Origin: a virus
Lineage: Duplodnaviria; Caudoviricetes
Reading direction: 5' to 3' (one strand)
IMG/VR virus record: IMGVR_UViG_3300028048_000089
Location: 51,329-115,328 of that record
DNA: 64,000 nt
The position numbers and the translations under genes were made by a program. Below, one piece after another: positions 6,887 through 63,911 of the stretch. Numbering within the stretch: position 1 is the stretch's first letter; each line of letters starts with the position of its first letter. The notes beneath the pieces are model-generated. The model ran no database searches, had not been told where the DNA came from, and was given only the letters and a program-made list of their open reading frames with translations.

Positions 6887-8167
6887 CTAGATAAGTTCAT
6901 CTAAGTCTTCTGCTTTATCAACTCTTAAAAGACTTAAAGTGGTTCTAAAACCATCATAGCCAACATTATCAACTTGCTTTGTAACAACATATAGACCAGA
7001 ACTAATATGTCTTCTTCCATAGAAATATACATTAAGTCTAATATGTGTCATAAGAATTGCAGGTCTTAATAAACCTTTAATAGTAATTTTTGCTTTAATT
7101 GGAAATTCTGTTACTTTTGTCCACCAACTCTTTTCTGCCTCAGTAGCAACTCTATAAGCATTTGAACTTCCTAAAATTGGTGCATATACTTCTTCTAATT
7201 CACCTCTATCATTAATTCTTTGTACATATTGGTCTGTATTTAATTTTTCATAGAAATTATAGAAAATTGTATAACCTTCATCATCTTCAACATCAAAACT
7301 TGTAACAATGTTTTGAGAAGGATAACCAATATCTAATTCATATGCTAAAGGCATATTTTTTGCATGTGTAACATAAACAATCTTAAAGAATGGTCCTTTA
7401 AATTTTCCACTAACATCATCTTCACATACTAATGAATACATACCATCTTTTGTCAAACTAGAAGATTTTGATGCCTTCATGATATTAACTAAGTATAATA
7501 AGTACTCAATTGGTGAAATATTTGTTCTTGCTTCAACATCAACTTCAACATCAGTTTCAGGAATAAGACCTTCTTGTTCAACTAAACTTTTATCACTCAT
7601 TCCATAAAAAACTTCTTGAAGTCCATAAGAACTATCATATAATAATTTTTTAATTAATGCACTTGCTTTATGTCTACCAACCCAGTCAGTACTTGTGAAA
7701 CTAAAAGCACCAACACTTAATAATTTACCTGTACTTACAGCACTAACAACATAATCAATTTTAGAAGATGATGCTGTCATTCTTTGTCTAACTTTAAGAA
7801 TAATTGCTTCTTCATCTCTATAACAGAAAGTAGGTGCAGATAAATCACCATAACTAAATTTAATTTTTCTTGTTTTACTAACACTACTAAAAACTTTATA
7901 GAAGAAGTTAGGGTCATCTGCTTCTGTCACAGGATAAGATAAATTTAAAGTATATTTATTGACTACACCATTAATCTTTTCAATTGTTAATGATTGAACA
8001 TAGTTTGGATATTTAATTTTATTGATTGTAAAAACACCACTAGCATCAAAACCATTAGTACTTACTTTATCATACACACCAAAAGTATATTTACCAATTG
8101 TGATTTTGATAAATGGAGTTTCAACTCTACTTGTATTTGATAATAAGTTAATTGGTTTTGTTGCCAT
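6887..8167 (-). CDS. Baseplate hub protein (T4 gp27 / late control D-like)
   Basis: 426 aa; C-terminal SGLYVVTKQVDNVGYDGFRTTLSLLR is typical of hub proteins; lies between LysM-like and spike genes. Confidence 0.7.
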   Translation of the reverse strand: MATKPINLLSNTSRVETPFIKITIGKYTFGVYDKVSTNGFDASGVFTINKIKYPNYVQSLTIEKINGVVNKYTLNLSYPVTEADDPNFFYKVFSSVSKTRKIKFSYGDLSAPTFCYRDEEAIILKVRQRMTASSSKIDYVVSAVSTGKLLSVGAFSFTSTDWVGRHKASALIKKLLYDSSYGLQEVFYGMSDKSLVEQEGLIPETDVEVDVEARTNISPIEYLLYLVNIMKASKSSSLTKDGMYSLVCEDDVSGKFKGPFFKIVYVTHAKNMPLAYELDIGYPSQNIVTSFDVEDDEGYTIFYNFYEKLNTDQYVQRINDRGELEEVYAPILGSSNAYRVATEAEKSWWTKVTEFPIKAKITIKGLLRPAILMTHIRLNVYFYGRRHISSGLYVVTKQVDNVGYDGFRTTLSLLRVDKAEDLDELI

Positions 8168-12668: not shown

Positions 12669-12971
12669 CTACTTCTTGCTATTTCTCTTTTCTTGAAGTG
12701 TTTGTAGTTCTTTTTCTACTGCTTTTTGTTTCTCATTATATTCATCTAATAAGAATTTAATCAGTAATTCTCTTTCTTTTGGAGTTATCTTCAATACATC
12801 AGCATAAGATGTATTCATATTTTTACTAATAAGATAACACTCTTGAACTACTCTCTTATATCTTTCAGGACCATATGGTTTACCACTTTCAGTTAATTTC
12901 GGGTCCAAAAAATTCTGGTTGGAGGCGAAAGTTAGTGACAACTTCATATCCACAATTTGGACATTTTGCAA
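12669..12971 (-). CDS. Tail/baseplate assembly chaperone, second part (T4 gp51-like); start uncertain, possibly reached by frameshift
   Basis: Overlaps the 3' end of 12889..13638 and has no convincing RBS. YLISKNMNTSYADVLKITPKERELLIKFL resembles gp51/GT-type chaperone tails. Confidence 0.6.
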   Translation of the reverse strand: MQNVQIVDMKLSLTFASNQNFLDPKLTESGKPYGPERYKRVVQECYLISKNMNTSYADVLKITPKERELLIKFLLDEYNEKQKAVEKELQTLQEKRNSKK

Positions 12972-13638
12972 CTACTGAAGTGTCTAACCCTACCTTTCCA
13001 TTAAGTTCATTACCTTTATTTAAGATATACAATGTATCTTTCATAGGTAACTCTCTTACAAATTTTTCTTTAGCAACATCATTAAGTTGTTTATTATCAA
13101 CTTTACCAATTAATGACATTACTGTAAACATAAACTCATAATTTGTATTAAGTTTAGTTTTCTTTTTCATATCCTTTGCTTTTGATTTAACAGCATCAAT
13201 CATTCTAGGTGTTTGTAAACTTAACTTAATAACTTTCTTTGTTTCAGGAAGAGTAATTTCTAAGTCAAGACCTTTTTCTTCATCAAATTCTTGAACTGTT
13301 TCTGTATCAAGATTGACAGAAGAACTAACAACTTCACCACAGTTAGGACATTGAATGACCATTTTGTATTCTGGTCCATAAGTAACAACTCTTAACTTGT
13401 GTAATAAGAATTGATAATCACCTAAACACATATCATAAGAAGAAATTGGTAAATCTTCTATAATACATGCATCAATGATTTCAGCCATTGTTTCATGCTC
13501 TAATTCATTATATGCCAACCTTTTCATTTCTTCTTCAGTTGTCATACTTCTTAGAGTAACTACAGGGTTAAATTTTTCTGCATAGAGTAACCCTTTTGAT
13601 GGGAGTGTAAACTTTTCTTGAATTGTGATTGAACCCAT
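12889..13638 (-). CDS. Baseplate hub / tail assembly chaperone (T4 gp26-like)
   Basis: LPSKGLLY...LRSMTTEEE start, two CPNCG knuckles and a terminal EFF, all features of gp26-like proteins. Confidence 0.75.
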   Translation of the reverse strand: MGSITIQEKFTLPSKGLLYAEKFNPVVTLRSMTTEEEMKRLAYNELEHETMAEIIDACIIEDLPISSYDMCLGDYQFLLHKLRVVTYGPEYKMVIQCPNCGEVVSSSVNLDTETVQEFDEEKGLDLEITLPETKKVIKLSLQTPRMIDAVKSKAKDMKKKTKLNTNYEFMFTVMSLIGKVDNKQLNDVAKEKFVRELPMKDTLYILNKGNELNGKVGLDTSVVAKCPNCGYEVVTNFRLQPEFFGPEIN

Positions 13639-14905: not shown

Positions 14906-16111
14906 CTATTCAGTAACTGAAATTTCATCAGTTAATTCAATTGTGATATCAAAGTCTTCAACAGCTTCAATTGGAATCAAAGAAATTTTAGCACAAAGTC
15001 TTGCTTTCTTATTAGTAGGAATTCTGCTAATCTTATAATCTAAAATACCATTACCTGTTGACATTCTATCTAATGTTGGAAGAATGTAAGAGGTGAAGTT
15101 TGTCCAAAGAATTTCACTATTTTGTTCAAATGTATATTTATTTGCAGCATTGAAGGCCACTTTAGCAACTTCAGTAGAAAGAATTCTGCAATTTAAGAAG
15201 GAAGTCGCTTTTGTAACACCAGCACCAGATGTATCAGCTTCATTATCTCTCAATGTTCTATTACCCCAAATGAGATGACCAAATGGTCTTCTATAAGCAA
15301 TTGGATTGATAGCCACACCAACATTATCGCCTGCATCATCTAAGGCAACTTCGGCATTTTTACTTCTTGCTTGGAGCATTTCAATATCAGAACTATTATA
15401 TTCTTTAGCAACGGCAACTAATTCAGGAATAATACCTCTGAAAGAACCAGCAACAGCATACCACATTGGATTTTCTTTAACACTTCTTGCAAAGGCACAT
15501 AAGTAACCAAATGATGCAGGAAGATTTTCAATTTTTTCAATAGCAGCATCGCTCATGCTATTAAGGTTACCTGTCCATGTTGGAGCAAAGGCAGCTGCAA
15601 ATGTAGATGGTTCTTTTGTTGAGGTAAGGTTTAATGCTTTAGCACTTGTATTAATAGTTTCAATAGCAGTTCTATATTCACTAACAGCATTATTTTCAGT
15701 GGCAATATCAATTAAAGCAACAGCATCACATCTTGTAGCAGCGCATTTAATCATTTTAACACCGTCTTGAATACCTTGGAAAAATTGACCTGTAGTTAAG
15801 AATCTGACATTATATAAGTTTTTATCAGTTAAAATATCCCAATTAATAACTGCATCACTTGTTTCACTATCAGCAACCACACCTTCATATAAAACATGCA
15901 TACCAAGAGTTAATAAATGATAAGCCATTTTAGCACTTAATCCTTCTGCATAAGTACCATCATCTACTGCTTTCTTAAAAAGTGAAGCATTTGTAAATAA
16001 AACAGGGGCAACTGCTTTATCAGCAGGACCTGGAATATAAACAACATTTGGAGTTTCAGTTGAACTCACTCTGCCAGTATTATCAATTTCTGTAATTCTA
16101 ATTTTTGGCAT
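14906..16111 (-). CDS. Tail sheath protein (T4 gp18-like, compact)
   Basis: WYAVAGSFRG, AINPI, IWGNRTL, LNCRIL, FEQN and PIEAVEDFDI are conserved sheath motifs. Confidence 0.92.
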   Translation of the reverse strand: MPKIRITEIDNTGRVSSTETPNVVYIPGPADKAVAPVLFTNASLFKKAVDDGTYAEGLSAKMAYHLLTLGMHVLYEGVVADSETSDAVINWDILTDKNLYNVRFLTTGQFFQGIQDGVKMIKCAATRCDAVALIDIATENNAVSEYRTAIETINTSAKALNLTSTKEPSTFAAAFAPTWTGNLNSMSDAAIEKIENLPASFGYLCAFARSVKENPMWYAVAGSFRGIIPELVAVAKEYNSSDIEMLQARSKNAEVALDDAGDNVGVAINPIAYRRPFGHLIWGNRTLRDNEADTSGAGVTKATSFLNCRILSTEVAKVAFNAANKYTFEQNSEILWTNFTSYILPTLDRMSTGNGILDYKISRIPTNKKARLCAKISLIPIEAVEDFDITIELTDEISVTE

Positions 16112-22577: not shown

Positions 22578-23294
22578 TTAATCAACTGGATAGAATAAAT
22601 TACTATTATTTCTTAATATTTCTCTTAAATTTTCTAATTCTCTATTACCTTCTTCAAGTAATGTATCACCATCAATTGTGTATAAAGCATTACTTTGTTT
22701 TGCATAGGTTCTAATTCTACCTAATGCTCTCTTTGTTAATGCTAATGCATGTCTTTGAAGAATATCAATCCAATAATCATTCTTAATGTCATCAACATCT
22801 TCAAACAAAGGCACATATTCAATTACAATAGTAGAAGGAACTCCACTAGAAATATTTATATACAATTTGTTCTCATGCTTGTCTTCTCTAAAAGCCAAGT
22901 CTGTAGATTGTGTATTTCTAAGTTGTAATAATGTATTATAAGTCATGTAGTTGGTTAAGTAGTTATTTAAGTTATACATTGAACCACCATTACTATATGC
23001 TAACCACACTTGAGCATACATAGGGTCAACACTACTAATACCACCATTACCAGGACCTTGGTCACCAATGGCTGCATCTCTATAGACATTAACAATTGCA
23101 CTATGTTTAAAATCAGTTAAATCAATACAAGATGCAAAAGGAACTTGAACAAGTTTAGTTTCATCTATGTATCTTTGAATCTCTCTAAGAGATTGCATAA
23201 CTAACTTACCAATCATCTCATCAGTAATTTCTAATTCAAGAAGACCACCAGTTAACTCAAGTTTAATTGCTTCAATATAATCAGTTAATTGCAT
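22578..23294 (-). CDS. Neck / head-tail adaptor protein (T4 gp13-like)
   Basis: IKLELTGGLLELEI N-terminus and WIDILQRHALALTKRALGRIR...IDGDTLLEEGNRELENL C-terminus match gp13-like proteins. Confidence 0.8.
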   Translation of the reverse strand: MQLTDYIEAIKLELTGGLLELEITDEMIGKLVMQSLREIQRYIDETKLVQVPFASCIDLTDFKHSAIVNVYRDAAIGDQGPGNGGISSVDPMYAQVWLAYSNGGSMYNLNNYLTNYMTYNTLLQLRNTQSTDLAFREDKHENKLYINISSGVPSTIVIEYVPLFEDVDDIKNDYWIDILQRHALALTKRALGRIRTYAKQSNALYTIDGDTLLEEGNRELENLREILRNNSNLFYPVD

Positions 23295-23378
23295 TTATAT
23301 CATCTCCAAAAAGAATAGTATATCTATCATTAAATTTAGCAACTATATAAAATTGTATAATTTTAAGCACTATTTACA

Positions 23379-23410
23379 ATAAAAAGCAACCAAATAAATT
23401 TAGTTGCTTT
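23379..23410 (-). terminator. Intrinsic terminator after the tRNA
   Basis: Minus strand AAAGCAACTAAAT-TT-ATTTGGTTGCTTT followed by TTAT, immediately 3' of the tRNA CCA. Confidence 0.75.
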
Positions 23411-23414
23411 AAGT

Positions 23415-23490
23415 TGGTTACAGGGGGAGGACTTGAACCTCCGACCTCCAGGTTATGAGCCTGGTAAGCTACCTCTGCTATCACCCTGCG
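23415..23490 (-). tRNA. tRNA-Met(CAT), initiator type
   Basis: CGCAGGG...CCAGG-CTCATAA-CCTGG...GGAGG-TTCAAGT-CCTCC-CCCTGTA-A-CCA; 76 nt; C1xA72 mismatch; encoded CCA. Confidence 0.95.
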
Positions 23491-23672
23491 ATATCATCTT
23501 TAATAATTAGATTAGAATTGCCACTATCTAATCTCATTTGGGTTACATAAACACATAACGAATATAGTAGCAATTCTTTTTAATGCTCTTAATAACATAG
23601 TTTCTCCAATCTAGGTTTTAACGAGTTTTTTCTTCTCAATTAGAGCAAGATTGGCTATGACATTTGTATTTC

Positions 23673-23793
23673 GGCGGGGATGGAGAGGTATTGCACCTCA
23701 CAAACATTAAGATTCTTACACAGGACTTTTAATCATTTACCATGGACATGAAACCTTGTCGCTTAAATCATTTTCTACTTAAGTTACAACCCC
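23673..23793 (-). ncRNA. tRNA-like element (~120 nt, non-canonical)
   Basis: 5' GGGGTTG pairs with 3' CATCCCC-G-CC (one mismatch); T-arm-like GAGG-TGCAATA-CCTC; long D-like stem CTTAAGT/ATTTAAG; no clean anticodon arm. Confidence 0.45.
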
Positions 23794-23815
23794 AGAAAGA
23801 CTCCGAAGAGTCTTT
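23794..23815 (-). terminator. UUCG-capped hairpin, probable terminator or 3' boundary of the large RNA
   Basis: Minus strand AAAGACTC-TTCG-GAGTCTTT-CT. Confidence 0.65.
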
Positions 23816-24892
23816 ATTCATAGATGTTACTACTGTGTATCGTTCGTTTGCACAGGGTTAGATTTCTCTAACAAGGCAGGTAACTAGTCACGCTTTACAT
23901 AGGGTTTATGATTCTCACTACCTAATACGTTTGACATTCGCTCATTCTCATCAGTGACTCGTGCAGGATTTTATAACTATTGATAATAGTTCCCTGGACC
24001 CATGTCAGCTGGAACCTGCTTTTCTAAAAGTATTTTTCACCTAATTAGATGGTTTCTGTTTCTTATGTTTCTGTTGTTACCGTCTCCTACTGCTTTGGTA
24101 GATTGCTTCAGGTCAGTAGTCAACCTTTTGTTTAGAGGTCCGCTAACTCTAAACATAGAAAGGAGGTAAGGTTTATATTAACTCTATTGCTAGAGTAATA
24201 TACAAAGTTATTGACAATTTTTACTCTCCTCAGCAGTGTCTTAACAGTTATCTGGTAAGAGTAGGATTGCTCATGAGCCTCCGGCCTAATCGCGGTAGAT
24301 ATTTAATCATGAGTGTACTTGTTCCGATACATCATCACTGAATGTAGATTGTGAACCTCTCGGCAAACATTTTATTTATGTTTAATTTGAAGGCTCAACC
24401 CTTCTTGCAGGAGTAAATTCCTGGAGTTCCCTGGCTTTAATTTCTCTATACCATTCTACGCCATCTCTGGTAGGCACCAGCACATCTCCCTCATCTAAGG
24501 AAGATACAGGAAACGAACCCGTTATTTTTTCATAGATGGTTAATTACCTATTGCTAATGGTTATAAGCCAAACATTAGTGTAGTGACTGAAACTATACTA
24601 CTTTGTTCTAGATTTTACTCTAGTTACGGAGTTTAACCGCTTTTCTAATGCCAATAGGCTGAGGTAGTCCACTGACTTGCTTAATGCAAACAACATTCAG
24701 TACTGGGTGGTGGAACTATTTTTTTTAGTTAAGAATATTCACTTGTGTACTCTCCGCAACTTACGGGCTCTGTCTATTCTGCAGAAGACATTCCACGATT
24801 AGGAGTTTATGACGGTGTAGTAGATTGCGACTCTGTATCTTATATACCTCATATTTCAAAGGACTCAAAGACCCCGTCCATTCTTTCTTAAC
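23816..24892 (-). ncRNA. Large (~1.1 kb) structured non-coding RNA candidate (GOLLD-like or new class)
   Basis: No ORF in the track; visibly GC-richer than its flanks; own TATAAT promoter at 24899-24928; minus-strand GNRA hairpins (CTCTA-GCAA-TAGAG, GTTAGA-GAAA-TCTAAC); ends at a UUCG hairpin; next to a tRNA. Confidence 0.6.
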
Positions 24893-24898
24893 TATTAT

Positions 24899-24928
24899 AT
24901 TATACAAGATTTCTCTTGATAATACCAA
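24899..24928 (-). promoter_or_regulatory. Sigma70/SigA-type promoter for the ~1.1-kb RNA
   Basis: TTGGTA-N18-TATAAT on the minus strand. Confidence 0.55.
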
Positions 24929-24944
24929 CTTTTTTTATACATCT

Positions 24945-25510
24945 TATCATTCAATGAGTTCATGACTCTCACTGTTTTACTTACCATTTGATGTAAAGGA
25001 ATTTAACCTAAGCCTTAAAATAAGTTTGCTCATACTGATAGGATATCGGTGTCCTATTGTCATCAATTTTATAATCACACAAGTTTCCCACCATCTAAGA
25101 CAGTGACAAAGGATATTGTGTAATTAACATCATAAGGCACATCAATTAAGACATGCCCTTGAAAGTCCCAACATTAGTTGGCAATAGGTCCTTTATTATC
25201 CTATGTTTTAATCCATCGCATTAGTTTATCACTAGTCACAAGCAATAGATGAGGTATCCAAGATTTTTTCGTAATGTGCTTTACTTTCTCCACTTGGTTG
25301 GAAGATGTGAGAGACACCTTTTCAGTTCTTTGTCTTGAACAGATATTGCAGTAACATTATCTCACATTATGTAACCACTCAAGATTCCTATCCCTTTAAC
25401 GAATCTTCCTGGGGCATGTCTTCTCAATTAAGTTAGGTCTTCATGCTTGTCTAACAGCAGTTTTTTCTATAAACGAGATGTCGCCCGTTTTGCAAGAATG
25501 TTAACTTGCA
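24945..25510 (-). ncRNA. ROOL-like large structured RNA (~560 nt)
   Basis: ORF-free. Perfect 11-bp long-range helix between 25148-25158 and 25412-25422. Size and tRNA-adjacent phage context fit ROOL. The minus-strand TTAATTGAGAAGACATG...AAGATTCG...GGAATCTTGAGT...TGTGAGATAA resembles ROOL as I recall it (not verified by search). Confidence 0.6.
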
Positions 25511-25516
25511 CATATT

Positions 25517-25544
25517 ATTATACAATCTTTTTTCAAAATTGCAA
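25517..25544 (-). promoter_or_regulatory. Sigma70/SigA-type promoter for the ROOL-like RNA
   Basis: TTGCAA-N16-TATAAT on the minus strand. Confidence 0.55.
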
Positions 25545-25620
25545 TAATATTTTTAAAGAAAAGTATATAAAAACAATACCTCTCTTTTCATTTAATTTAG
25601 CACTTTGATTTTTAGGTATT

Positions 25621-25650
25621 AAAAAAGATGCATTATTTCAATGCATCTTT
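25621..25650 (-). terminator. Intrinsic terminator
   Basis: Minus strand AAAGATGCATT-GAAAT-AATGCATCTTT followed by TTT, just after the stop at 25664. Confidence 0.8.
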
Positions 25651-25663
25651 ATCTTCTTGTAAA

Positions 25664-26788
25664 CTACTTTTCAACTCTTGCTTTAAGTTCAATTGGTTTT
25701 CTTGCTTTAATATGACCTGTATTATGATTGTCTTCTTTCATATCTTTGACTGCACCAACAAGTTTTCTTTCTGGTGTATCTTTACCAAAATGTTTATCAA
25801 GAATGTCATCATCTGTATTCTTAATTACTTTTTTAAATAAAACATCCTCGTCATCATCTAGGTCATTCCAATCAACAGTGCCTAATTTAACATCATCTTC
25901 TGATTCATCTATAATATGATTGAAACCAAAGTCATCATCAAAATCAGTACTTTCAGAAATAGATTCACCAAAATCATCATCAATATCATCTAAAGCAATA
26001 TCATCAATGAATTCAGTATTTGAGACTTCAATCTTATCATCATCATTTTCTTTTGGTTCTTCTTTATCTTCATGCTTATAGATAGCATTTGGGTCTTTCT
26101 TAAGAACTTCTAAGAAATCTTTATGAGCAACTTCCTCTTCTTTAATATGATTTAATTGTTCAATAGCATTAGCATCTGCTTCTTTATCTAACATAGCAAT
26201 AATCTTGTCATAACCAGCAATTGCTTCATCTTCATCTTTAACTAAGAAATCAATTTTTTCTTCAAATGTTTCTAATTTTGGTTCTTTAGCATCTTCTTTA
26301 GGTTCTTCAACTTCTACTTCTGCTTCAACATCAATATCTTCAGCATCTTCTTTTAATGATTCATCAACAACTTCAAAATACTTATCAAAATCCTTTAGTA
26401 AGAAATCAGGGCCAATACTACCCCAAGTACCTAAATTTGTTTCAATCTTCCTATTGCCTCTAGTATCAACTTGTTTAGCATCATAGATACAACCTTTAGA
26501 CCATAATTCACCTTCTTCATCATCTTCCATGTAATCCTTAATGCATTTAACCTTGATTGTTGCTTTATCTTCTTTTAAAGATTCTTTAACTGCAACTAAA
26601 TCTTTGGTAGAGTCAATAATATCTTCTTTATTGAAAGAAATACCAGCATCACCTTTTAACCAAATAGCATCTTCATCATACTTTTTATTTAATTCTCTAA
26701 ATTGAGATAAAAGATGTTTATATTCATCATAATTGTCTTCTTCAATACCTAAGATATCAAAAATTTCCTTATCAGTTAAATTTTTCAT
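25664..26788 (-). CDS. Acidic multidomain putative internal head protein
   Basis: Two ESLKED linkers; DEDEAIAGY...HIKEEEVAH segment has a ferritin-like helix-pair pattern. Confidence 0.6.
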   Translation of the reverse strand: MKNLTDKEIFDILGIEEDNYDEYKHLLSQFRELNKKYDEDAIWLKGDAGISFNKEDIIDSTKDLVAVKESLKEDKATIKVKCIKDYMEDDEEGELWSKGCIYDAKQVDTRGNRKIETNLGTWGSIGPDFLLKDFDKYFEVVDESLKEDAEDIDVEAEVEVEEPKEDAKEPKLETFEEKIDFLVKDEDEAIAGYDKIIAMLDKEADANAIEQLNHIKEEEVAHKDFLEVLKKDPNAIYKHEDKEEPKENDDDKIEVSNTEFIDDIALDDIDDDFGESISESTDFDDDFGFNHIIDESEDDVKLGTVDWNDLDDDEDVLFKKVIKNTDDDILDKHFGKDTPERKLVGAVKDMKEDNHNTGHIKARKPIELKARVEK

Positions 26789-53187: not shown

Positions 53188-54546
53188 TTAGTTGCCACTG
53201 ACAACATTGACATCAACAGGTTGTGCTTCATCAACAACTTCACCAGCAACTAATAAAGCAGTGTTTAAAAGTTTGAGGTCATATAATGTTGAGAAACCTT
53301 GACTATTGCCACCATCAGCAAATTGTAATAAGGCTGTTGGAACGATTGCCATATATGGAGCATAAACAGCAGCAGATGTAGCTAAATCATCACCATTGAA
53401 ACCTAAGACAAATTTACCTTTTTCAATAGCTGGGGAGACAAAGACTTTTAAGCCATTGAGTGTACCAGCAAAGTATGGGCCAGCAATTTTACCACGGGAA
53501 GCTTCTTTCCAACCTCTCATTAATGGGAGCATGACTTTGACATCAGATGCACAAATCATGTAGTTGGCAGCATGTTTACCGGTGCGGTCATAGATGATTC
53601 TAGAACCATTTTCTAAGACTTCAGAGAATGATTCATAGTGTTCAGCAAGACTAATACCGTTTGGACGTCTCTTATTGAACTTTAAGGTTTCATCCACTGG
53701 AGCAGATTCGGCTAAGAGTTTAACAACTTCAGTGTCAATTTCATAGGATAATTCACCAACGGCTTGAGTTTGGAGTAATTTACCTAAGTCAATGTTATTT
53801 TCTTGTTGAGCTTGGAAAGCAGCCATTTGAGAGTAGTAAATAGCAATACGTCTTGGTTTGGCTTCTAAGGCGATTCTTTCAACTCTAACATTGTAAATTG
53901 GGAGGTCATGTTGTGGGATTAAGGTTTGGTCATATAAGTATTTAACTTTGACTTTACCAGAAGCACCTTCAACTTTGATTTCACCAAGTTCCCAGTTAAT
54001 AACAGTGATTGTAGCACCAGAATCAGCACCAACTAATTGTGGGGCAAATCTCTTATCAACAGGTGTCCAGGCTAAGACGGCTTTACCTTCGGCATCAAGT
54101 GTAACTTCTTCAGCAACAGCAGTGGAAGTGTAGTTCATTCTATCTTCGGTCATTGGACCTAAAGCAAATGGACTATTGAATTCGTCACCTTGTTTGATAC
54201 CACCTTTATTACTACCAGCAACAAACTTGTAGTATTGGATGGAACCTGTGAAGGATGGCATTGGTTGAACGATAACTAAATCGTTAGCAATGAGGTTTGG
54301 AAGAACGACTGTAGTAACATCTAAACAGAACTTTTTGAAGTTACCCATGTCAGCTCTTTGTGTACCAACAGAGTTGGCAAATGCTTCGTTCATTTTGAAT
54401 TTGATGAATTCAGAACTATTATTTAAAACTTTAGCGATTGTTTCTTTTTGGGCTAAGTTTAAGGAAGCATTTTCATGATTTTTAGCATAAACGCTTTCAG
54501 AGACAGCTAATCTTCTCTTATAAGCTTCAGTTAATGAAGTATTCAT
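53188..54546 (-). CDS. Major capsid protein (T4 gp23-like)
   Basis: LIANDLVIVQPMPSFTGSI, EAKPRRI, ELSYEIDTEV and AAVYAPYMAI are gp23-family motifs. Start moved to ATG 54546 (MNTSLTEA), with an AGGAG RBS. Codon usage differs from neighbours, as expected for a highly expressed gene. Confidence 0.95.
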   Translation of the reverse strand: MNTSLTEAYKRRLAVSESVYAKNHENASLNLAQKETIAKVLNNSSEFIKFKMNEAFANSVGTQRADMGNFKKFCLDVTTVVLPNLIANDLVIVQPMPSFTGSIQYYKFVAGSNKGGIKQGDEFNSPFALGPMTEDRMNYTSTAVAEEVTLDAEGKAVLAWTPVDKRFAPQLVGADSGATITVINWELGEIKVEGASGKVKVKYLYDQTLIPQHDLPIYNVRVERIALEAKPRRIAIYYSQMAAFQAQQENNIDLGKLLQTQAVGELSYEIDTEVVKLLAESAPVDETLKFNKRRPNGISLAEHYESFSEVLENGSRIIYDRTGKHAANYMICASDVKVMLPLMRGWKEASRGKIAGPYFAGTLNGLKVFVSPAIEKGKFVLGFNGDDLATSAAVYAPYMAIVPTALLQFADGGNSQGFSTLYDLKLLNTALLVAGEVVDEAQPVDVNVVSGN

Positions 54547-54592
54547 TATTTTCTCCTTAATTAAATTATTGTAATATGATTTTATTTTATTA

Positions 54593-56083
54593 TTAGACAG
54601 TTTCAGCAACACCCATAAGTGTATCATCTACAAAGTCATCTGTATCTTGACTTATTGGTGCTTTTTCTTTACTACTAATCTTCATTTGGACTTTTCTGTC
54701 CACATTGAATGGTAATTTACTTATGTTAAGTTCATAACTTTGAATGCTTTCACAAACTCTATCAATATCATCAAGTGTATAAGAATTACTTAATTTACCT
54801 TTGATTTCATCAGCGGCAATACCCATATTCTTTGCTCTTAACTCAATATATTTATTGACAGCAGAATTGGCTAATTTCTTATAACCTTCTTTGATTTTGT
54901 CTGATTTTGCAACCTTTGTTTGTAACTCTTCAATAAGTTTATTTGAATTGTTTAACTTCTCATCATAAGATTCTTTAAGAGCATTAACTTCTTTTTCATG
55001 GTCAGTCTTTAAACTGTTCATGCTTTCAGTAAGTTTTGTTGTAGATTCATTCTCTGCAACTTTCTTTGCTTCTTCATTCTCTTTTGTGAGAGTGTCAATA
55101 ACTTGACTCTTTTGTTTAAGTTCTTCTTCTAAAGTTGAAACCTTTTTAGAAAGTTCTCTAGAATTTTTAGCAATAGTTGTAAGTCTAATAACTGTAGATT
55201 TACTTCTTTCTAAGTCTTCTTCTAACTTGCTAACTTTAACATCATTAACTGCGGCTTGCTCTAAGAGTTCTTTGATTTTGCCTTCTAATTCAGAATTCTT
55301 ACTAAGTGCTTCTTGTAAGTTCTTGATTAATTCTGCGGACCCATCATCAATGGCATCAGTAGTTTTTTCAACAACATTTGTAACTGTAGAATCACTAACT
55401 TCTATATTCTCTTCCACTTCTGGATTTGAAACTTCTTTTGGTTCCTCAACATCAATATTGAGGTTATGTAATGCTTCTTCCATTACTTTTCTATCTTCAT
55501 CACTTGCTTTTTCAAGTGATTCACATAATGCTTGTTTCATTGTCTTTTGTTTACTAAGACCTTCAGTGAATTGTAATCTAGCACTTTCAACTGCAGGGAC
55601 TAACACAATGTCAAAGCATTCACAATCGTATGTTTCAGGGTCAACTGCTTCTTCACCATCCTCATCAGTGTATAAATCACCAGTGCCTCTAGATGAAATA
55701 CCTAAAGTTGAACCATAATCACATAAAGTCTTTAAGATTCTTCCATTTGGAGTATCTAAGATATCTAAGTAGGCAATAAGTCTACCATCTTTATCTTTCT
55801 TTGGTGGTTCAGGCATACTAACAGCAATCTTTTCCATATCAATTTCTGTTCTATCTTCTGGGTGGCCTAATTCACCATACATGACTTTATTATTGAATTT
55901 TTCTTTCATGATTGGGTTATTGAAAACATTTTCCCACAATTCTTCAGAATACTTTCTTCCGTTTCTTGTAGGATTAACAACATCAGCAACAGGACCATAA
56001 AGTCTACCTAAAATGTGTCTCTTTTGCTTTTCTTCTGTTGTTAAATCTTCAAATGCCAACATCTCTCTAATTTTATCACTCAT
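54593..56083 (-). CDS. Prohead protease (T4 gp21-like) fused to a coiled-coil scaffold domain
   Basis: TRNGRKY, GELGHP, LDTPNGRIL, GISSRGTG and FDIVLVPA, followed by ~300 aa of charged coiled coil. Confidence 0.92.
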   Translation of the reverse strand: MSDKIREMLAFEDLTTEEKQKRHILGRLYGPVADVVNPTRNGRKYSEELWENVFNNPIMKEKFNNKVMYGELGHPEDRTEIDMEKIAVSMPEPPKKDKDGRLIAYLDILDTPNGRILKTLCDYGSTLGISSRGTGDLYTDEDGEEAVDPETYDCECFDIVLVPAVESARLQFTEGLSKQKTMKQALCESLEKASDEDRKVMEEALHNLNIDVEEPKEVSNPEVEENIEVSDSTVTNVVEKTTDAIDDGSAELIKNLQEALSKNSELEGKIKELLEQAAVNDVKVSKLEEDLERSKSTVIRLTTIAKNSRELSKKVSTLEEELKQKSQVIDTLTKENEEAKKVAENESTTKLTESMNSLKTDHEKEVNALKESYDEKLNNSNKLIEELQTKVAKSDKIKEGYKKLANSAVNKYIELRAKNMGIAADEIKGKLSNSYTLDDIDRVCESIQSYELNISKLPFNVDRKVQMKISSKEKAPISQDTDDFVDDTLMGVAETV

Positions 56084-58512: not shown

Positions 58513-60387
58513 TTAATCATTATCAACCAGTGAGATTCCCATTTCATCAGGACTTGGTAAATAACTTGCTTCACCTTCAGTTGGTGCTTCTTCTGTAGGT
58601 TCTTCTACAGGTTCTTCTTCTGGCATTTCAAGAGTTGGTTCATTACTTGGAATTTCATTTGTAATGTTTATGTCAGGAGAAGATTCTTTTGGTGTGTCTT
58701 TTTTATTATCTTTATTGTCATCACCATTCTCTTCTTTTGCTTTCTCTTTAGCATCAATGTCTTCTTGTAGCAATGAAATAACTTCAGGGTCACTAACTGT
58801 TGATGCTAATAATGATTTTAAAATCTTAAGTTTAAGAATGTTATCATCAACAACAGCATTGACTTGAGACATAACATCTTGAACAACACCCATTTGATTT
58901 CTTGTATGTTCTCTTCTATCTAATTCTTCTTGAGTAACAGGAGTTTGCATTCTTAATCTAAATCTATTAATGTATGTTGAGTAACCTCTATCAATAAGAA
59001 TTAAATTAACATAGTCAGTTAACATTTGAATAAAGATATTTTGAATTGCTTTAATTTCTTTACCATATCTACTTGAGATAATTGTTAATGAACTACCACC
59101 ATTAAATCCTGTGCTATCATCAGTTAAGTTAAAGAATTGTTTAGGAACTCTCATATCTCCATAGAATTTATTTTGGAAATAATCTAAGTCATTTAAATTC
59201 TTTGGGTCATAATCTCCACCAAGAATTTGAGAAGTAACATTTCCTTGACCATTATGTACTGGTAAATAAAGTGTATTTTCAACAGGTCCTGGATTTGTGT
59301 ACTCTTGAATAGATTTACCAACTTGCATAGCAGATTTTTGTTCAATAAGTTGTTTTAATCTATCAACATAAAGCTTTGCTTGGTCTTTTGACATATCACC
59401 AATATCAATATTAAGAATTCTAATAATAGCAGATTTTGTTAATCTACTTAACAATACGGAGTTCTCTAATAAAGATAATTGTCTCCATGTTCTAAATTGA
59501 TTGTATAACAATGATTGACCTTTTCTAACTTTAAAGGTATTAATAGTAGTTGTTTTATCTTCATCATATTCTTTATCATCAGTAAAGATTGCAACTTCTT
59601 CAGGACATCTACTAGCATTATTATTATTTAAACAAGCATGAACGAAGTCTGTAGCATTATAGATATCAATATCATTTTGTTTAACTTTATAAAACATAGA
59701 ACTATACATGTCTTGATTTGTAATATTACTTTGAATATTAGTTGGTGCTTTAATGTAAGCCATTGTTTTACCATGTTTTGTTAATTCAAACATCTCACCA
59801 GGATTAGCAACCATTTCGGTGTAAAGTCTATAGTGGTCAGAATCCTTGTGTAAGTAAACATTAATATCTTCTTCTAATTTATCTTTAACATCTTCATTTA
59901 AAGCCTTAGAAGATTTGTTAAACATTTTATCATCATCTACATAGTCACTATCTCTAAATAATTGTAAATATAAATCACCATATTTAATTAAAGAATAGAC
60001 CCATTCATAAGCATGTTTATCAACATTTAAACTATCTATAATATAATTGACAAATTTACTTACATCATCATCACTACTTTCACACCATACAATTTGACCT
60101 TTTTCATTTGTTTCAATAACATCTTCAGTGTATGTTTCAAGTATAGCAGAAACTCTATCATCTTCCGCCATAGTGTCAATAAGAGAATAAACAGATTCTC
60201 TAGTTTGAGCAACATTACTAAAATTGTCAATAGCTGCCAAATCTATTGCACTTGATTGTATGGCGTCTAAAACTTGTAATGTAAATGAATCATCTACATC
60301 AACACCTATTTCTTGAGGCTCTTTTGGAACTGCTTTAACTTTCTTTCCAACAAGATTTGTATTGTCTTTAGTTTTATTATTTGGCAT
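58513..60387 (-). CDS. Portal protein (T4 gp20-like)
   Basis: LIKYGDLY, WRQLSLLENSVLLSRL, NIDIGDM and DLDYFQNKFYGDMRVPKQF; lies between terminase and protease. Confidence 0.93.
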   Translation of the reverse strand: MPNNKTKDNTNLVGKKVKAVPKEPQEIGVDVDDSFTLQVLDAIQSSAIDLAAIDNFSNVAQTRESVYSLIDTMAEDDRVSAILETYTEDVIETNEKGQIVWCESSDDDVSKFVNYIIDSLNVDKHAYEWVYSLIKYGDLYLQLFRDSDYVDDDKMFNKSSKALNEDVKDKLEEDINVYLHKDSDHYRLYTEMVANPGEMFELTKHGKTMAYIKAPTNIQSNITNQDMYSSMFYKVKQNDIDIYNATDFVHACLNNNNASRCPEEVAIFTDDKEYDEDKTTTINTFKVRKGQSLLYNQFRTWRQLSLLENSVLLSRLTKSAIIRILNIDIGDMSKDQAKLYVDRLKQLIEQKSAMQVGKSIQEYTNPGPVENTLYLPVHNGQGNVTSQILGGDYDPKNLNDLDYFQNKFYGDMRVPKQFFNLTDDSTGFNGGSSLTIISSRYGKEIKAIQNIFIQMLTDYVNLILIDRGYSTYINRFRLRMQTPVTQEELDRREHTRNQMGVVQDVMSQVNAVVDDNILKLKILKSLLASTVSDPEVISLLQEDIDAKEKAKEENGDDNKDNKKDTPKESSPDINITNEIPSNEPTLEMPEEEPVEEPTEEAPTEGEASYLPSPDEMGISLVDND

Positions 60388-60434: not shown

Positions 60435-62226
60435 CTACATTGGATATAGAATATCATCATATGAACTGCTTACATTTTCATCTAAGTCTTTTGAACTAAA
60501 CCAGTCTCCCATTTTCTTTAATTCATTTTCAAGGTCAACGGTTATTTGTTTATGTATTGAGGTTTGTTTTTCATTAGAGTACAAAGTGAGTTCAGCATCT
60601 TCTCCATAATCATGAGCATACTCTTCTGCATGGCCACTTGCATTATAGATAGCACCACAAACGGCGTCGGCTTGGTCCTTACTACCTCTTTTACCACCAT
60701 CCGGGTGGTCAATCTTTCCGTTATTATTGTTAATCTCTAATTGTACTAATTCAGTATATAATAATTCTGTTTTATATAAAGAAAGTCTACCTTCATAAAT
60801 AACATTTTTAAGATATTGGTAAGGTCTACAAATTCCACCTTGTTCACCGGGAATTGATTCAACTCTATCAACTGATAAGATTTTACAATCAAACCCCTCA
60901 CCTGTTAAAATTTGTTGTAAGTCTGCAGATTGATAAGTATCGGTTGTAATACCCTTAACATTAAACCCTACTTTTCTTAACCATCTAACAAAGTTTCTAT
61001 TCTTTTCAAATGATATTTGCCTACCTGTTGGTGCTTGTATAGAAGTACTAAATGCAAGTTTAAACATTAAGTCTTTACCAGGGTTACCATCGCTTGTAGG
61101 TTTCTTACCAACAATCCATACACCAGCAATACCGGTTTTGTCTTTACTTTTAGACATATCTAGGTGTACATATAAAGGTTTATTCATGTATTCTTTATCT
61201 AGAACATCACCATTAAACCAATCATAGTATTGAGCAGTATCATCGGGGGCATCACCACAACTAATAATATCAGGAAGTGGGTTTTGTCTTTTAGCATCTA
61301 CAATATCAGATACTCTACTTGCGGATAAGAATTTATTAGAAGAAAAACTAGAGATACCTGCATAGTCACAAAGTACTCTTTCAAGACCAGTCTTAGCATC
61401 TGCTTCAAAATCTATAGGTATTTCTATTAATGTATAACCTTTTTCTCTATAGAATTCTAAGTTATCATAATCTTTTCTAGGAATAACCAGGTTATCTAGG
61501 AACTTATTACCTAAACCTACCCAGAATTTTTCTTTACTATATGTACCTTCAGGTTTAACTTTCCAAACAGGTTCATCAATAATTTTAACATTATCCCCTT
61601 CAGTTTCGGATAACTCTTTAATATAAGATTCCATAAATGATTGTTCACTTCTCTTAGAAGAAGCAACAACTAATAATGTTGGATTCTTACCCTTATAGAT
61701 AAATCTTGTCTTCATACCACCTTTAGCGGTATCAATCATATCTTTTGCTTTTTTCTTTTGAATCTCAACATCTTGATTCTTTAAAAAACTACTTATATAT
61801 TTCTATATTTAGACTATCTCTTAATCTTATATTGTTTTGTCCTTTATAAGACCCTTTGCACTTCAACTAAATCATTTCATATTTAGTTTACTCTACTCAC
61901 TTGTTCTAATAAGTATTTCTCTTATTATATGTTTTCGTTAGTCGTTACACCTTACATTTAAGTCTTGGCACGGTATTGAAGTTAATCGTTCACCGTTAGC
62001 ACGAATAGTATTCATACACCCTATATTTATAGGTTCACAAAGTTTTTCATATACATTTCTGCATAAGGAGACCAGTTTAGTTAATCTCATCAAAGAAGCA
62101 ATTATGAGAACACACACAATTACTCTTAGTTTTTATTAAAAAATTATTGTAGGGATAAGCATCAATAACATCATAGTACTGTTTAGGTATATCTAGTGTA
62201 TGATGTGTAATACTTTTTATCTTCAT
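60435..62226 (-). CDS. terL: Terminase large subunit, C-terminal gene (IntC + Walker B + nuclease); spliced join(62084..62226, 60435..61791)
   Basis: ATG 62226 gives MKIKSI...YYDV...NNF...CSHN/CFFDE. Removing the intron gives ...DEISFLKNQDVEIQKKKAKDMIDTAKGG, in frame with ORF 60435..61739 (nuclease motifs VHLDMS, KDQADA). Spliced length is 1500 nt. Confidence 0.9.
61792..62083 (-). mobile_element. Group I self-splicing intron (292 nt, no ORF) in terL
   Basis: P TGCTAACGGTGAA, Q AATACCGTGCC, R GTAACGACTA, S AAGAGATAGTCT; P1 GAGAT/GTCTC with U-G at the 5' splice site; P10 AAACTG/TAGTTT; terminal G at 61792; excision restores the reading frame. Confidence 0.92.
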
Positions 62227-63284
62227 ACCATAAGTTTCCTCCCCTTAACAAAACCTTCTGGGCATTTTTCACAATAAATTGCTATTTTACCATTATTGTA
62301 CCAATGATAGTTCTTAGGTAAATTTGATTTCATCTTAGATTTAATTCTACCCTTAATAAAGCCTTCAGGAACCATTTCATTAGGATGTAATCTTATTTCT
62401 CTTATTCCATTATTATAAATTATTCTACCCCTATTCTTTTCTTCAACAATTTTATGAGATTTTTTTAAATGTTGAAGATGAATATCAGACTTCTTTTTAC
62501 CTTTTAATGCTTTTGATACTTTTTCACCGAAGTTAGCTGGTTTCTTTTTACCAGTTAATATGCTTGAAATTTTTCTTTTAAATTCATCATTTCTAATTTT
62601 ACCTTTATTGCCTATTGATATCTGTTTTCGCGTTTCTTCTGATACTTCTTTATGGTATCTACCATTTTTTTCACCTTTATGTAATTCAGACCACTTTTCT
62701 GTATCATTTAATGAATTACCGCCTTGACCACCTTTATGTATATTATAACCAAATGCTTTATCTTGTGCTTTGTAAAGTTTTATATACAACTTCTCAAGTT
62801 CATTGAGTTCTTCTCTTGAATAGCCAAAACAAATTATTTCTCTTGTAATTACACCTTTTCCATATTTTTTTAGGTCTTCTTTCCATAATTTACCACTACC
62901 ATAGTAATGTATATCAAACTCAGACTTCTCTCGCTTCCCTATATAAACTCTATTTGTCTTAGTATTTACAAATTTATATATGTAACCAAATGGTTTTATA
63001 TTTTCATCAAATAGTTCATCATCTTCAGTTAAATCTTTAGCCATTTTATATGTACCATTCTTAAGCATGAATCTATGTGTTGGGGTACATTTAATAATAG
63101 AGCCGTCTTCAAGTTCAATTTGATATTCTTCATTTGTTTTTAAAGTTGGCTTTACTGTACAATGCTCACTAATGACCTCTTCACCTTGTTCATCAATGGA
63201 TATAACTTGAATATCTTTATCTACTAATGTATCCAATCTCTTAAGACCTTCTGTTGTTTTAATCATTGTCTCACCATCAAGACA
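62101..63284 (-). mobile_element. Split intein in terL: IntN fused to a GIY-YIG endonuclease (63284-62223) plus a separate 42-aa IntC (62226-62101)
   Basis: Block A CLDGETMI, block B IKCTPTHRF, GIY-YIG GYIYKF...VYIGK, then a stop. An overlapping ATGA restart encodes blocks F/G (YYDV...NF...SHN-C). Confidence 0.88.
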
Positions 63285-63911
63285 AAAGAAAATTGGACGA
63301 CCAATAACATCATCACTTTGAGAACCTATAATCAATTCTAAAGGGTCAGGAGGGTTCCAATATGGATTATTATTTCGTTGAGTCATTTTGCCCTTATTCA
63401 TAAACCAAGGGCTTTTTTGAATTGTCTTTTGAAACTTATCTGTTGCAATTGCTTCTGCTAAGTCTAACTTAATATTCATAAATGCAAAAGCAATCTTTTC
63501 TGTATTCTTAATATGATAATGTTCTAGAGGGTCTTTAAGACACATAACTCTATACATTAAATATGGACAAATAACACCACAAGCAATTTCAGATTTACCA
63601 ATGCCTCTAGCACCAGATTCTAATAATGTGTCATAGTCAGTAGCAATATTTGAAGGAAAAATATCTTTTAATTCTTTAAGCCAAAATGGATAAAGTTTAA
63701 GTTTACCTGAACCATCTTTCCAAGCATTTCCTAAATATTTATCATCATTTAAAAAGGTTTCAATGTCAACAGGTATTTCTTTATAATCTGCATAAAGCAA
63801 CTCCGCATATGTTCTAGAGGAGCCATCTTTAGCAAATTCTTTTAATATCTTTAGAACAGTATCTTTTTGCTGTTCATTTAAATTCTTTAGTAACTCTTTT
63901 GAATCGTCCAT
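62223..63911 (-). CDS. terL: Terminase large subunit, N-terminal gene (ATPase N-part + IntN + GIY-YIG)
   Basis: LYPFW, Walker A ESGARGIGKS, then VIGRPIFF/CLDG intein junction after residue 209. Confidence 0.92.
   Translation of the reverse strand: MDDSKELLKNLNEQQKDTVLKILKEFAKDGSSRTYAELLYADYKEIPVDIETFLNDDKYLGNAWKDGSGKLKLYPFWLKELKDIFPSNIATDYDTLLESGARGIGKSEIACGVICPYLMYRVMCLKDPLEHYHIKNTEKIAFAFMNIKLDLAEAIATDKFQKTIQKSPWFMNKGKMTQRNNNPYWNPPDPLELIIGSQSDDVIGRPIFFCLDGETMIKTTEGLKRLDTLVDKDIQVISIDEQGEEVISEHCTVKPTLKTNEEYQIELEDGSIIKCTPTHRFMLKNGTYKMAKDLTEDDELFDENIKPFGYIYKFVNTKTNRVYIGKREKSEFDIHYYGSGKLWKEDLKKYGKGVITREIICFGYSREELNELEKLYIKLYKAQDKAFGYNIHKGGQGGNSLNDTEKWSELHKGEKNGRYHKEVSEETRKQISIGNKGKIRNDEFKRKISSILTGKKKPANFGEKVSKALKGKKKSDIHLQHLKKSHKIVEEKNRGRIIYNNGIREIRLHPNEMVPEGFIKGRIKSKMKSNLPKNYHWYNNGKIAIYCEKCPEGFVKGRKLMV

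Follow-up and report, generated by a model that had tools for sequence, protein, structure and literature searches.

A modular, tRNA-associated family of phage RNAs that is analogous to GOLLD and ROOL but belongs to neither

What does a phage keep in the one long stretch of its genome that encodes no protein? The question is raised by a 64,000-nucleotide (nt) stretch of viral DNA, hereafter the window, which corresponds to bases 51329-115328 of the IMG/VR virus record IMGVR_UViG_3300028048_000089 (115 kb, about 70% complete, 29% GC). In this record 82 of the 83 open reading frames (ORFs) of at least 150 amino acids (aa) lie on the minus strand, and the sole gap of more than 800 nt, at window positions 23295-25663 (2369 nt), is free of ORFs. 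An original prediction, made from the sequence alone, had singled out the smaller interval 23816-24892 as GC-richer than the rest, devoid of ORFs of 60 aa or more, and likely to specify a transcribed, structured non-coding RNA read from the minus strand. Indeed, neither strand of the interval holds an ORF of that length, and its GC content is 0.37-0.41 versus 0.29 genome-wide. Reading TAG, TGA or TAA as sense yields no long frame on the coding strand either, and a recoded gene was rejected on that ground. As set out below, the 1.07-kb unit is how one lineage has put together a shared core and accessory modules within a 1.7-kb RNA locus, and it represents a new, modular, tRNA-associated family of phage RNAs.

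The product of the gap is an abundant RNA. Positions 23200-25800 were compared with Logan contigs from a DNA run and from three metatranscriptomes, two of them bovine and one from sheep, with k-mer depth as the measure. In the run X2, three contigs without a single difference to the window tile 23830-25463 without a break at a depth of 192-376; an identical contig on the upstream gene (25657-25800) has a depth of 4.5 and the downstream gene one of about 2. In X3, which comes from a different study, one contig of 1139 nt (4 differences) covers 23615-24750 at a depth of 258, the flanks standing at 2.6-2.9. The DNA run (X7) has a flat depth of about 8 over genes and gap alike. Overall, contigs from the two bovine studies that equal or nearly equal the window reach depths of 190-400 in the gap and of 0-6 on its flanking genes, and the RNA enrichment of the gap over these genes amounts to 50-170-fold. 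Since such a step is beyond the reach of DNA carry-over, the gap must be transcribed and its product must accumulate. The RNA also extends beyond the predicted unit: contigs run upstream through a promoter-like block to about 25463 (X2) and downstream past a UUCG hairpin to 23615 (X3). Both X2 contig ends (23830, 15 nt before the hairpin, and just past 25463) abut Illumina adapter, in an orientation compatible with a minus-strand RNA. Contigs of this kind give neither exact ends, nor strand, nor the number of RNA species, and the gaps between them (24903-25154 in X3, 23548-23808 in X2) are not counted as evidence. The stops of X3 and X18 contigs at 24902 and 24905 hint only weakly, if at all, at a 5' end.

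The RNA has relatives in other phages. The locus adjoins the gene for a T4 gp13-like neck protein (22578-23294), which has 1403 homologues, and the neck-gene contigs L004-L009 and L073 have, in the corresponding position, a gap of 0.85-2.9 kb that is free of ORFs. Within IMG/VR, the search by flanking proteins led only to two distant relatives, L001 and L003, both without a gap here. Between the window and its relatives, strong conservation falls in short blocks, and the stretches in between vary in length. Three of the blocks, M1 (GTTCCACCACCCAGTACTGAATGTTG), M2 (AAGTCAGTGGACTACCTCAGCC) and M3 (AAAGCCAGGGAACTCCAGGA), keep a constant order everywhere and are found together in 14 distinct loci; M1 persists even where M3 has drifted. 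With a degenerate M3 pattern, 40 loci were retrieved from metagenome contigs in JGI/ENA and another 4 from IMG/VR; a subset of these also has M1 and M2, and an M1 scan of IMG/VR adds members on contigs of 36-214 kb. By the same M1 scan, the contig of L003 carries the RNA elsewhere in its genome. An IMG/VR scan with a hairpin motif taken from 24640-24621 gave no hits.

About 26 distinct rumen or gut phage contigs have the 3' element of the core, and 14 of them gave full-length cores. These range from about 190 to 400 nt, the shortest (187 nt) being that of L017, at 12783-12975. As full-length core alignments exceed 400 columns, the covariance model R1 covers the 3' part only. With E<1e-8 as the cut-off it matches 26 loci; in the window it has a single match, of 81.7 bits (E 1.4e-21), a score owed partly to construction because the model was built from 10 sequences that included the one from the window. 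The set that defines the family, namely M1, M2, AUAGGUAAUUAACC and M3 in this order followed by the hairpins H5 and H6, the latter with the loop GUUGWG, is complete in the window between 24716 and 24389. Among 185,579 species genomes (one per prokaryotic species) the M3 pattern occurs 14 times, always without M1, M2 and H6, and these hits were dismissed as chance. At this stringency the family appears to be confined to viral and metagenome contigs and absent from cellular genomes. Among GenBank phages, DNA similarity to the gap is limited to its tRNA, and the core alone finds nothing at E<=1.

The core is a conserved, covarying, structured RNA on the minus strand. In the alignment of the 14 distinct cores (window part 24722-24379), standard pairs are formed in 96.9% of cells versus 32-49% when the partners are slid by 1-3 columns. 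Compensatory changes are seen at nine pairs, and none of 500 shuffles reaches the observed covariation score. For the 3' part, 7 of 10 pairs show compensatory changes on the 32 R1 matches, in an alignment that was fitted to the model and so favours structure. The core hairpin at 24570-24558 switches from UGG/CCA to CAG/CUG in a sheep-gut variant and in L014, and H5 bears an extra covarying domain in seven loci (UGGGU/ACCCA, CAGGU/ACCUG, CGGGU/ACCCG, UAGGU/ACCUA). One G-U pair invariant in 13 sequences, together with several wobble pairs, fits the minus strand only, and the strand is assigned accordingly. Long invariant unpaired stretches, above all M1 (GUUCCACCACCYRGUACUGAAU), argue for tertiary or quaternary contacts or for a specific partner.

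RNA depth, compensatory changes and G-U pairs together bear out the transcribed, structured, minus-strand RNA that had been predicted. They also tell against a region that works as DNA, be it an origin, a packaging site or a recombination hotspot, and against a decayed gene or mobile-element remnant, with the RNA being incidental. Such a view could draw on the fact that the locus is an insertion relative to the distant L001 and L003, and that its content is highly variable. It is largely refuted by the 50-170-fold enrichment, by compensatory changes that include G-U pairs on one strand only, and by the lack of a frame under any code; we give it next to no credence.

Some observations must be set against an expressed RNA family acting as a single particle. 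Helix P1, which closes the core, is nearly invariant and hence gains little from covariation; L074 even has a C-A mismatch in it, and its other variants are a G-U pair in L077 and a U inserted opposite an otherwise bulged A in L075. Single-sequence folding-energy z-scores of the modules (-0.2 to -2.0) stay within the range of coding controls. The contigs cannot tell one long RNA from processed pieces, nor do they tell its strand or ends. Close relatives without the locus exist (L003 at this position, and the contig P0015), the gap is also absent in L001, and it follows that the locus is dispensable at this site. Outside close relatives there is no conserved protein neighbour. Finally, some members may already figure in the set of 8,495 unnamed candidate RNAs that PMC10690425 describes from IMG/VR. 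With all this taken into account, we consider it very likely that the locus specifies a new expressed family of structured RNAs. The coordinates of its parts are collected in Table 1.

Table 1. Features of the RNA locus, in window coordinates, listed from the upstream end
Feature	Position	Strand	Basis and remarks
Upstream RNA unit	25544-24940	minus	ORF-free; own promoter TTGCAA-16-TATAAT at 25544-25517 (scan)
Promoter-like block	24928-24894	minus	Consensus scan, 10/12
5' domain	24893-24727	minus	Minimum free energy fold closed by 9-bp helix AGUUAAGAA (24893-24885)/UUCUUAACU (24735-24727)
Conserved core	24716-24385	minus	Alignment of 14 full-length cores, RNAalifold, pair counts, R1
M1	24716-24691	minus	Core alignment
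P1	24716-24709 with 24432-24426	minus	M1 GUUCC.CC pairs with M3 GG.GGAAC
M2	24678-24657	minus	Core alignment; small hairpin within
H3	24659-24652 with 24553-24546	minus	Encloses variable domain
Core hairpin	24570-24558	minus	Core alignment
AUAGGUAAUUAACC	24551-24538	minus	Core alignment
H4	24540-24537 with 24453-24450	minus	Encloses 80-nt insert, this lineage only
M3	24438-24419	minus	Core alignment
H5 hairpin	24423-24408	minus	CAGGA pairs with UCCUG
H6 terminal hairpin	24404-24389	minus	Loop GUUGAG here; invariant GUUGWG in family
S1 (3' module)	24367-24205	minus	Closed by ACAAU 24352-24348/AUUGU 24218-24214; GUGA-loop hairpin 24346-24328
S2 (3' module)	24204-24107	minus	12-bp GCAA hairpin 24202-24174; covarying hairpin 24154-24130; ACCUCCUUUCU 24167-24157; helix iii 5' strand 24119-24114
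S3 (3' module)	24106-23816	minus	Helix iii 3' strand 24092-24087; conserved CUGAUGAG-containing stretch; GAAA hairpin 23872-23857
c(UUCG)g hairpin, AAAGACUC-UUCG-GAGUCUUU	23815-23796	minus	3' edge of homology with relatives; not called terminator
tRNA-Met (CAU)	23490-23415	minus	ARAGORN and Rfam
Intrinsic terminator after tRNA-Met	23410-23383	minus	Terminator scan

In this lineage the core carries a 5' domain and three 3' modules. The 5' domain contains two pairings that had been predicted, GACGG/CCGUC (24878-24874 with 24815-24811) and AGAAT/ATTCT (24884-24880 with 24736-24732), as well as one copy of CAAUCUAC. It has no homologue in any locus retrieved and is present, with 2-3 differences, in the RNA contigs of X3 and X18. 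Because the promoter block stands directly before M1 in L014 and L048, the 5' domain of the window looks like an insertion between promoter and core. One X3 RNA contig joins 24902 back to 24721 via the letters CTA, an indication that in that strain the 5' domain is duplicated in tandem or occurs as a circle. The repeat GCAATCTAC lies at 24828-24820 and 24106-24098, as the original prediction had it, and there is a third copy of CAATCTAC at 24351; of the four copies on this strand of the whole window, three are in the RNA.

Homologues of S1 are found in L005, L028 and L071, and RNAalifold returns 41 pairs from 4 sequences, 6 of them compensatory. S2 is conserved in L005, L008 and L009. S3 is 77% identical to L008 5517-5872, a stretch that has a terminator immediately behind it, and is partially present in L028 and L071. 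S2 and S3 are bridged by helix iii, for which five complementary versions exist: CUACUG/CAGUAG, ACUACUU/AAGUAGU, CCACUU/AAGUGG, CCAUUA/UAAUGG and ACACUA/UAGUGU in the set formed by the window, L005, L008, L028 and L071. RNAalifold on S2 and S3 (4-5 sequences) proposes partly conflicting helices, and reliance is placed on those with several complementary versions in the alignments. The expected GNRA-loop hairpins are also present, with GCAA at 24195-24182 and GAAA at 23871-23858. At 23947-23954 S3 has the sequence CUGAUGAG, also present in L008, which with the conserved stretch that follows resembles a hammerhead core strand; no hammerhead model matches.

The order of the modules is not fixed. 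S1 is joined straight to S3 in L028 and L071, S2 occurs without S1 in L008 and L009, L006 lacks S1-S3 altogether, L028 has the 3' half of the core only, and in L040 a U8 terminator follows directly 3' of the core. To judge by these alignments, the locus is a kit made of one constant core and exchangeable folded parts. The two alternatives offered by the original prediction, a new large RNA class or several smaller RNAs in tandem, each hold in part. The conserved core of about 330 nt is a new family, and the remainder of the 1.07 kb consists of modules that are reordered and recombined in relatives. Nor is the unit self-contained.

The same variability lends itself to the proposal that no single functional RNA of 1.1 kb exists. 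The 5' domain (about 165 nt), the core (about 330 nt), S1, S2 and S3 would form a tandem array that is co-transcribed like a tRNA operon and cut into stable species with roles of their own. Modules in varying orders and combinations (L028, L071, L008, L009, L006), a core standing alone with its own promoter (L014, L048) or terminator (L040), and predicted folds in which each module is self-closed all accord with this proposal, as do the tRNA genes at the same loci, given that processing from precursors is established for tRNA operons. Against it, no processing sites are visible and no tRNA-like or known ribozyme element lies between the modules. Moreover, a single X3 contig reaches from the core through S1-S3 and further, and those of X2 join up without a break, contigs being no proof of a single molecule. 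We regard the tandem array as a rather unlikely account that still deserves to be taken seriously. The reading we prefer, with confidence somewhat better than even, is that the interval makes up most of a minus-strand non-coding RNA of about 1.1-1.7 kb, built of core and modules, which accumulates far beyond the mRNAs next to it and belongs to an uncatalogued family of large rumen and gut phages.

How such an RNA would be made can be read in part from the signals around it. The TATAAT promoter predicted upstream of the interval is there (TTGGTA-18-TATAAT, 24928-24899, consensus score 10/12), with its -35 element at 24928-24923 and two overlapping TATAAT boxes at 24904-24899 and 24899-24894. 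The scan as a whole lies weakly above chance (18 sites versus 10.7+-4.0). The block is conserved in L006, L014 and L048, and directly precedes M1 in the last two. Its spacer holds a 5-bp palindrome with a GAAA centre (24918-24905), which covaries among the window, L006, L014 and L048 (CAAGA/TCTTG, CTATA/TATAG, CGATA/TATCG, CAGGA/TCTTG; centres GAAA, GTAA or AAAA). The palindrome may represent an operator, or else a hairpin in RNA that reads through from upstream. The upstream unit, with a promoter of its own, has an RNA depth of 190-290 in X2 and 46-234 in X3. Blocks of it (24940-25560) are common to L004, L005, L008, L009, L047 and L073; block C (25302-25186) lies just 5' of M1 in L004 and L047, and about 700 nt upstream in L073. 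Sigma-70-type promoters at 25544-25517 and 24928-24899 would drive the RNA.

At the other end, the c(UUCG)g hairpin is present at 23815-23796 as foreseen, but not as a strict terminator: it has no U-tract, and the X3 RNA contig passes through it to 23615. The first canonical terminator 3' of the RNA is the one behind tRNA-Met, about 300 nt downstream of the RNA, so that RNA and tRNA may share transcripts. About 300 nt (23491-23795) separate the UUCG hairpin from the tRNA, and the X3 contig (depth 258) reaches into them; ARAGORN and Rfam report nothing in this stretch.

Relatives recur in or near tRNA arrays. In L017 the core begins 6 nt after a tRNA and more tRNAs follow downstream, and in L016, L074 and L078 arrays of at least 15 tRNAs lie 0.8-2.5 kb from the core. 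In L077, a 214-kb IMG/VR contig with a diverged core, ARAGORN reports a tRNA-Pyl with a CUA anticodon at 7879-7953, possibly an amber-suppressor tRNA. In L006, positions 534-609 resemble a c-di-GMP-I-GGC riboswitch (52.2 bits, gathering threshold 59) upstream of a phage gene.

A second pointer to translation is the tract ACCUCCUUUCU in S2, which reproduces the 3' terminus of Bacillota 16S rRNA. An exact copy is present in the window, L005, L008 and L009, and the tract recurs in unrelated 3' regions of L016 (AUCACCUCCUUUCUAU), L047 and L078. In these 7 loci it is found on the sense strand only, 150-550 nt 3' of the core, and the 115-kb genome has no second copy. The RNA might on this basis be a decoy or sponge, in which the tract binds Shine-Dalgarno sequences, or titrates a factor or nuclease that acts on the 16S tail, and redirects translation alongside the phage tRNAs. 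The exactness of the tract in four loci, its recurrence on the sense strand of otherwise unrelated regions, and the link with tRNA arrays speak for the idea. However, the tract is missing from about half of the family members, and hence cannot be the core function. Predictions of its accessibility are mixed (unpaired probability 0.21-0.67), and its pairing partner in L016 and L047 is a GGAGG shortly after it. Genes of the phage itself have ribosome-binding sites of the GGAG type. A broader proposal, descent of the core from the 16S 3' minor domain, was rejected, as local and global alignments to E. coli rrsH are no better than those of shuffles (z -0.6 to 1.1). On balance the decoy is improbable as an explanation of the family.

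Is the family already known under another name? When all 4227 Rfam 15 families were run against the window with cmscan, the check suggested at the outset, tRNA alone came out above threshold, and the other best hits in the interval had E>2. At E<=10 the gap shows no credible hit, and neither GOLLD nor ROOL is listed. Group I and II introns, RNase P, tmRNA, 6S, SRP, OLE, HEARO and known ribozymes have no Rfam match in the interval. The relationship to GOLLD put forward in the original prediction did not hold up: RF02032 (gathering threshold 150 bits) finds nothing in the 115-kb record at E<=10, although Infernal scored 17 candidates. For ROOL (RF03087, gathering threshold 99.1 bits) there is likewise no match at E<=10 in the whole record (1 candidate scored), in a search whose control genomes were also matchless and that thus had no positive control. 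The 13 related loci gave only tRNAs and weak chance hits in Rfam, with no GOLLD or ROOL at E<=0.1-1, and the M1, M2 and M3 motif strings do not occur in the relevant literature searched.

The resemblance to these two families is one of kind. ROOL, first found in cow rumen metagenomes, is several hundred nt long with many helices, resides in phages and prophages, often near tRNA genes, and is very abundant where measured (Weinberg et al. 2017; PMC5737381). GOLLD has one conserved and one variable part (Weinberg et al. 2009; Morgado et al. 2020; cited in 10.1101/2024.12.08.627333) and forms a homo-oligomeric RNA-only cage (10.1101/2024.12.08.627333). Both share a rumen or phage origin, proximity to tRNA islands and an abundance comparable to rRNA (PMC5737381; 10.1101/2024.12.08.627333). 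The new family is like ROOL in its rumen or gut origin, phage context, tRNA proximity and very high abundance, the last of these being seen here directly. It differs in that M1, M2, AUAGGUAAUUAACC, M3 and the GUUGWG loop are its own, and in having a shorter conserved core (about 190-400 nt) with exchangeable flanking modules. Like GOLLD it is a large phage RNA, with a conserved and a variable part, and lies near tRNA genes, its relatives being in or close to tRNA arrays; it differs in having no match to the RF02032 model, and no correspondence of sequence or helices was found. Shared habitat (cow rumen), phage origin, tRNA neighbours, size, modular build and abundance (PMC5737381; 10.1101/2024.12.08.627333) could also be taken as signs of a very divergent GOLLD or ROOL missed by current Rfam models. 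The record has no match to either model at E<=10, the ROOL search with the limit just given, and the 13 related loci have none; we consider such a hidden kinship very unlikely. The family is therefore described as analogous to GOLLD and ROOL, not as a member of either.

A further comparison is with the species 1 and 2 RNAs of T4 (rnaC and rnaD; NC_000866 70908-71171), encoded directly after the tRNA genes. These too are stable RNAs from a myophage with a gp13-type neck protein, probably on the same transcripts as tRNAs. In contrast to the present RNA, they are 119-139 nt long and end in a tRNA-like T-arm and acceptor; the new core is larger and without a tRNA-like part, and adjacency to tRNAs is seen only in some relatives. 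Neither ARAGORN nor Rfam detects anything tRNA-like in 23796-24892, and the T4 tRNA region (L070) shows neither a match to R1 nor any similarity apparent by eye.

The model is as follows. In the core, M1 pairs with M3 in a terminal helix; inside it are two long-range helices, and on its 3' side two hairpins. In this lineage the core carries the stem-closed 5' domain and the three separately folding 3' modules. The resulting RNA particle, probably made together with the phage tRNAs, would be of the same kind as GOLLD, ROOL and T4 species 1 and 2. It would act on the host translation or tRNA machinery, or through RNA-only assembly, rather than as an mRNA leader. That it is a stable, self-folded particle that acts on translation or tRNA metabolism, or that assembles with itself as ROOL and GOLLD do, is offered tentatively, by analogy with those two families. 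A more specific version is more speculative still. It holds that this is a third family of large, ornate, tRNA-linked phage RNAs, present at rRNA-like levels in the rumen and a new functional class of RNA, with an invariant core to which folded modules are attached interchangeably, and in which the nearly invariant 5' element (GUUCC-ACCA-CC...GUACUGAAU) and the copy of the 16S tail engage the host tRNA and ribosome machinery or drive an RNA-only assembly.

The setting of the locus is that of a myovirus. The gene set is of this type, with a tail sheath (14906-16111), a major head protein (53188-54627) and a portal (58513-60387), and myophage structural genes flank the RNA locus. The public runs that contain this stretch of the window are bovine and sheep gut samples. 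A motif TGCTAAATT (TAATGATA), with window sites at 25594-25602 and 23333-23341, is kept in every relative roughly 45 nt ahead of the gp13-like neck gene, and is also found behind the terminator where the RNA locus starts. It is similar to the MotA box of T4 middle promoters. Beside the portal and head genes is an ORF of 562 aa (62223-63911) with a match to homing-endonuclease families (phrog_314, E 1.9e-34).

Few large structured RNAs are known from bacteria and phages, and GOLLD and ROOL are without a known function. If the present RNA is a third, unrelated family that combines phage origin, tRNA neighbours and high abundance, such RNAs would represent a general phage strategy and not two curiosities. 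The modular build supplies natural deletion and swap variants, and the core of L017 is short enough to be tractable for structure determination. Public rumen metatranscriptomes contain the RNA in abundance, and its reads may at present go into their unassigned fraction.

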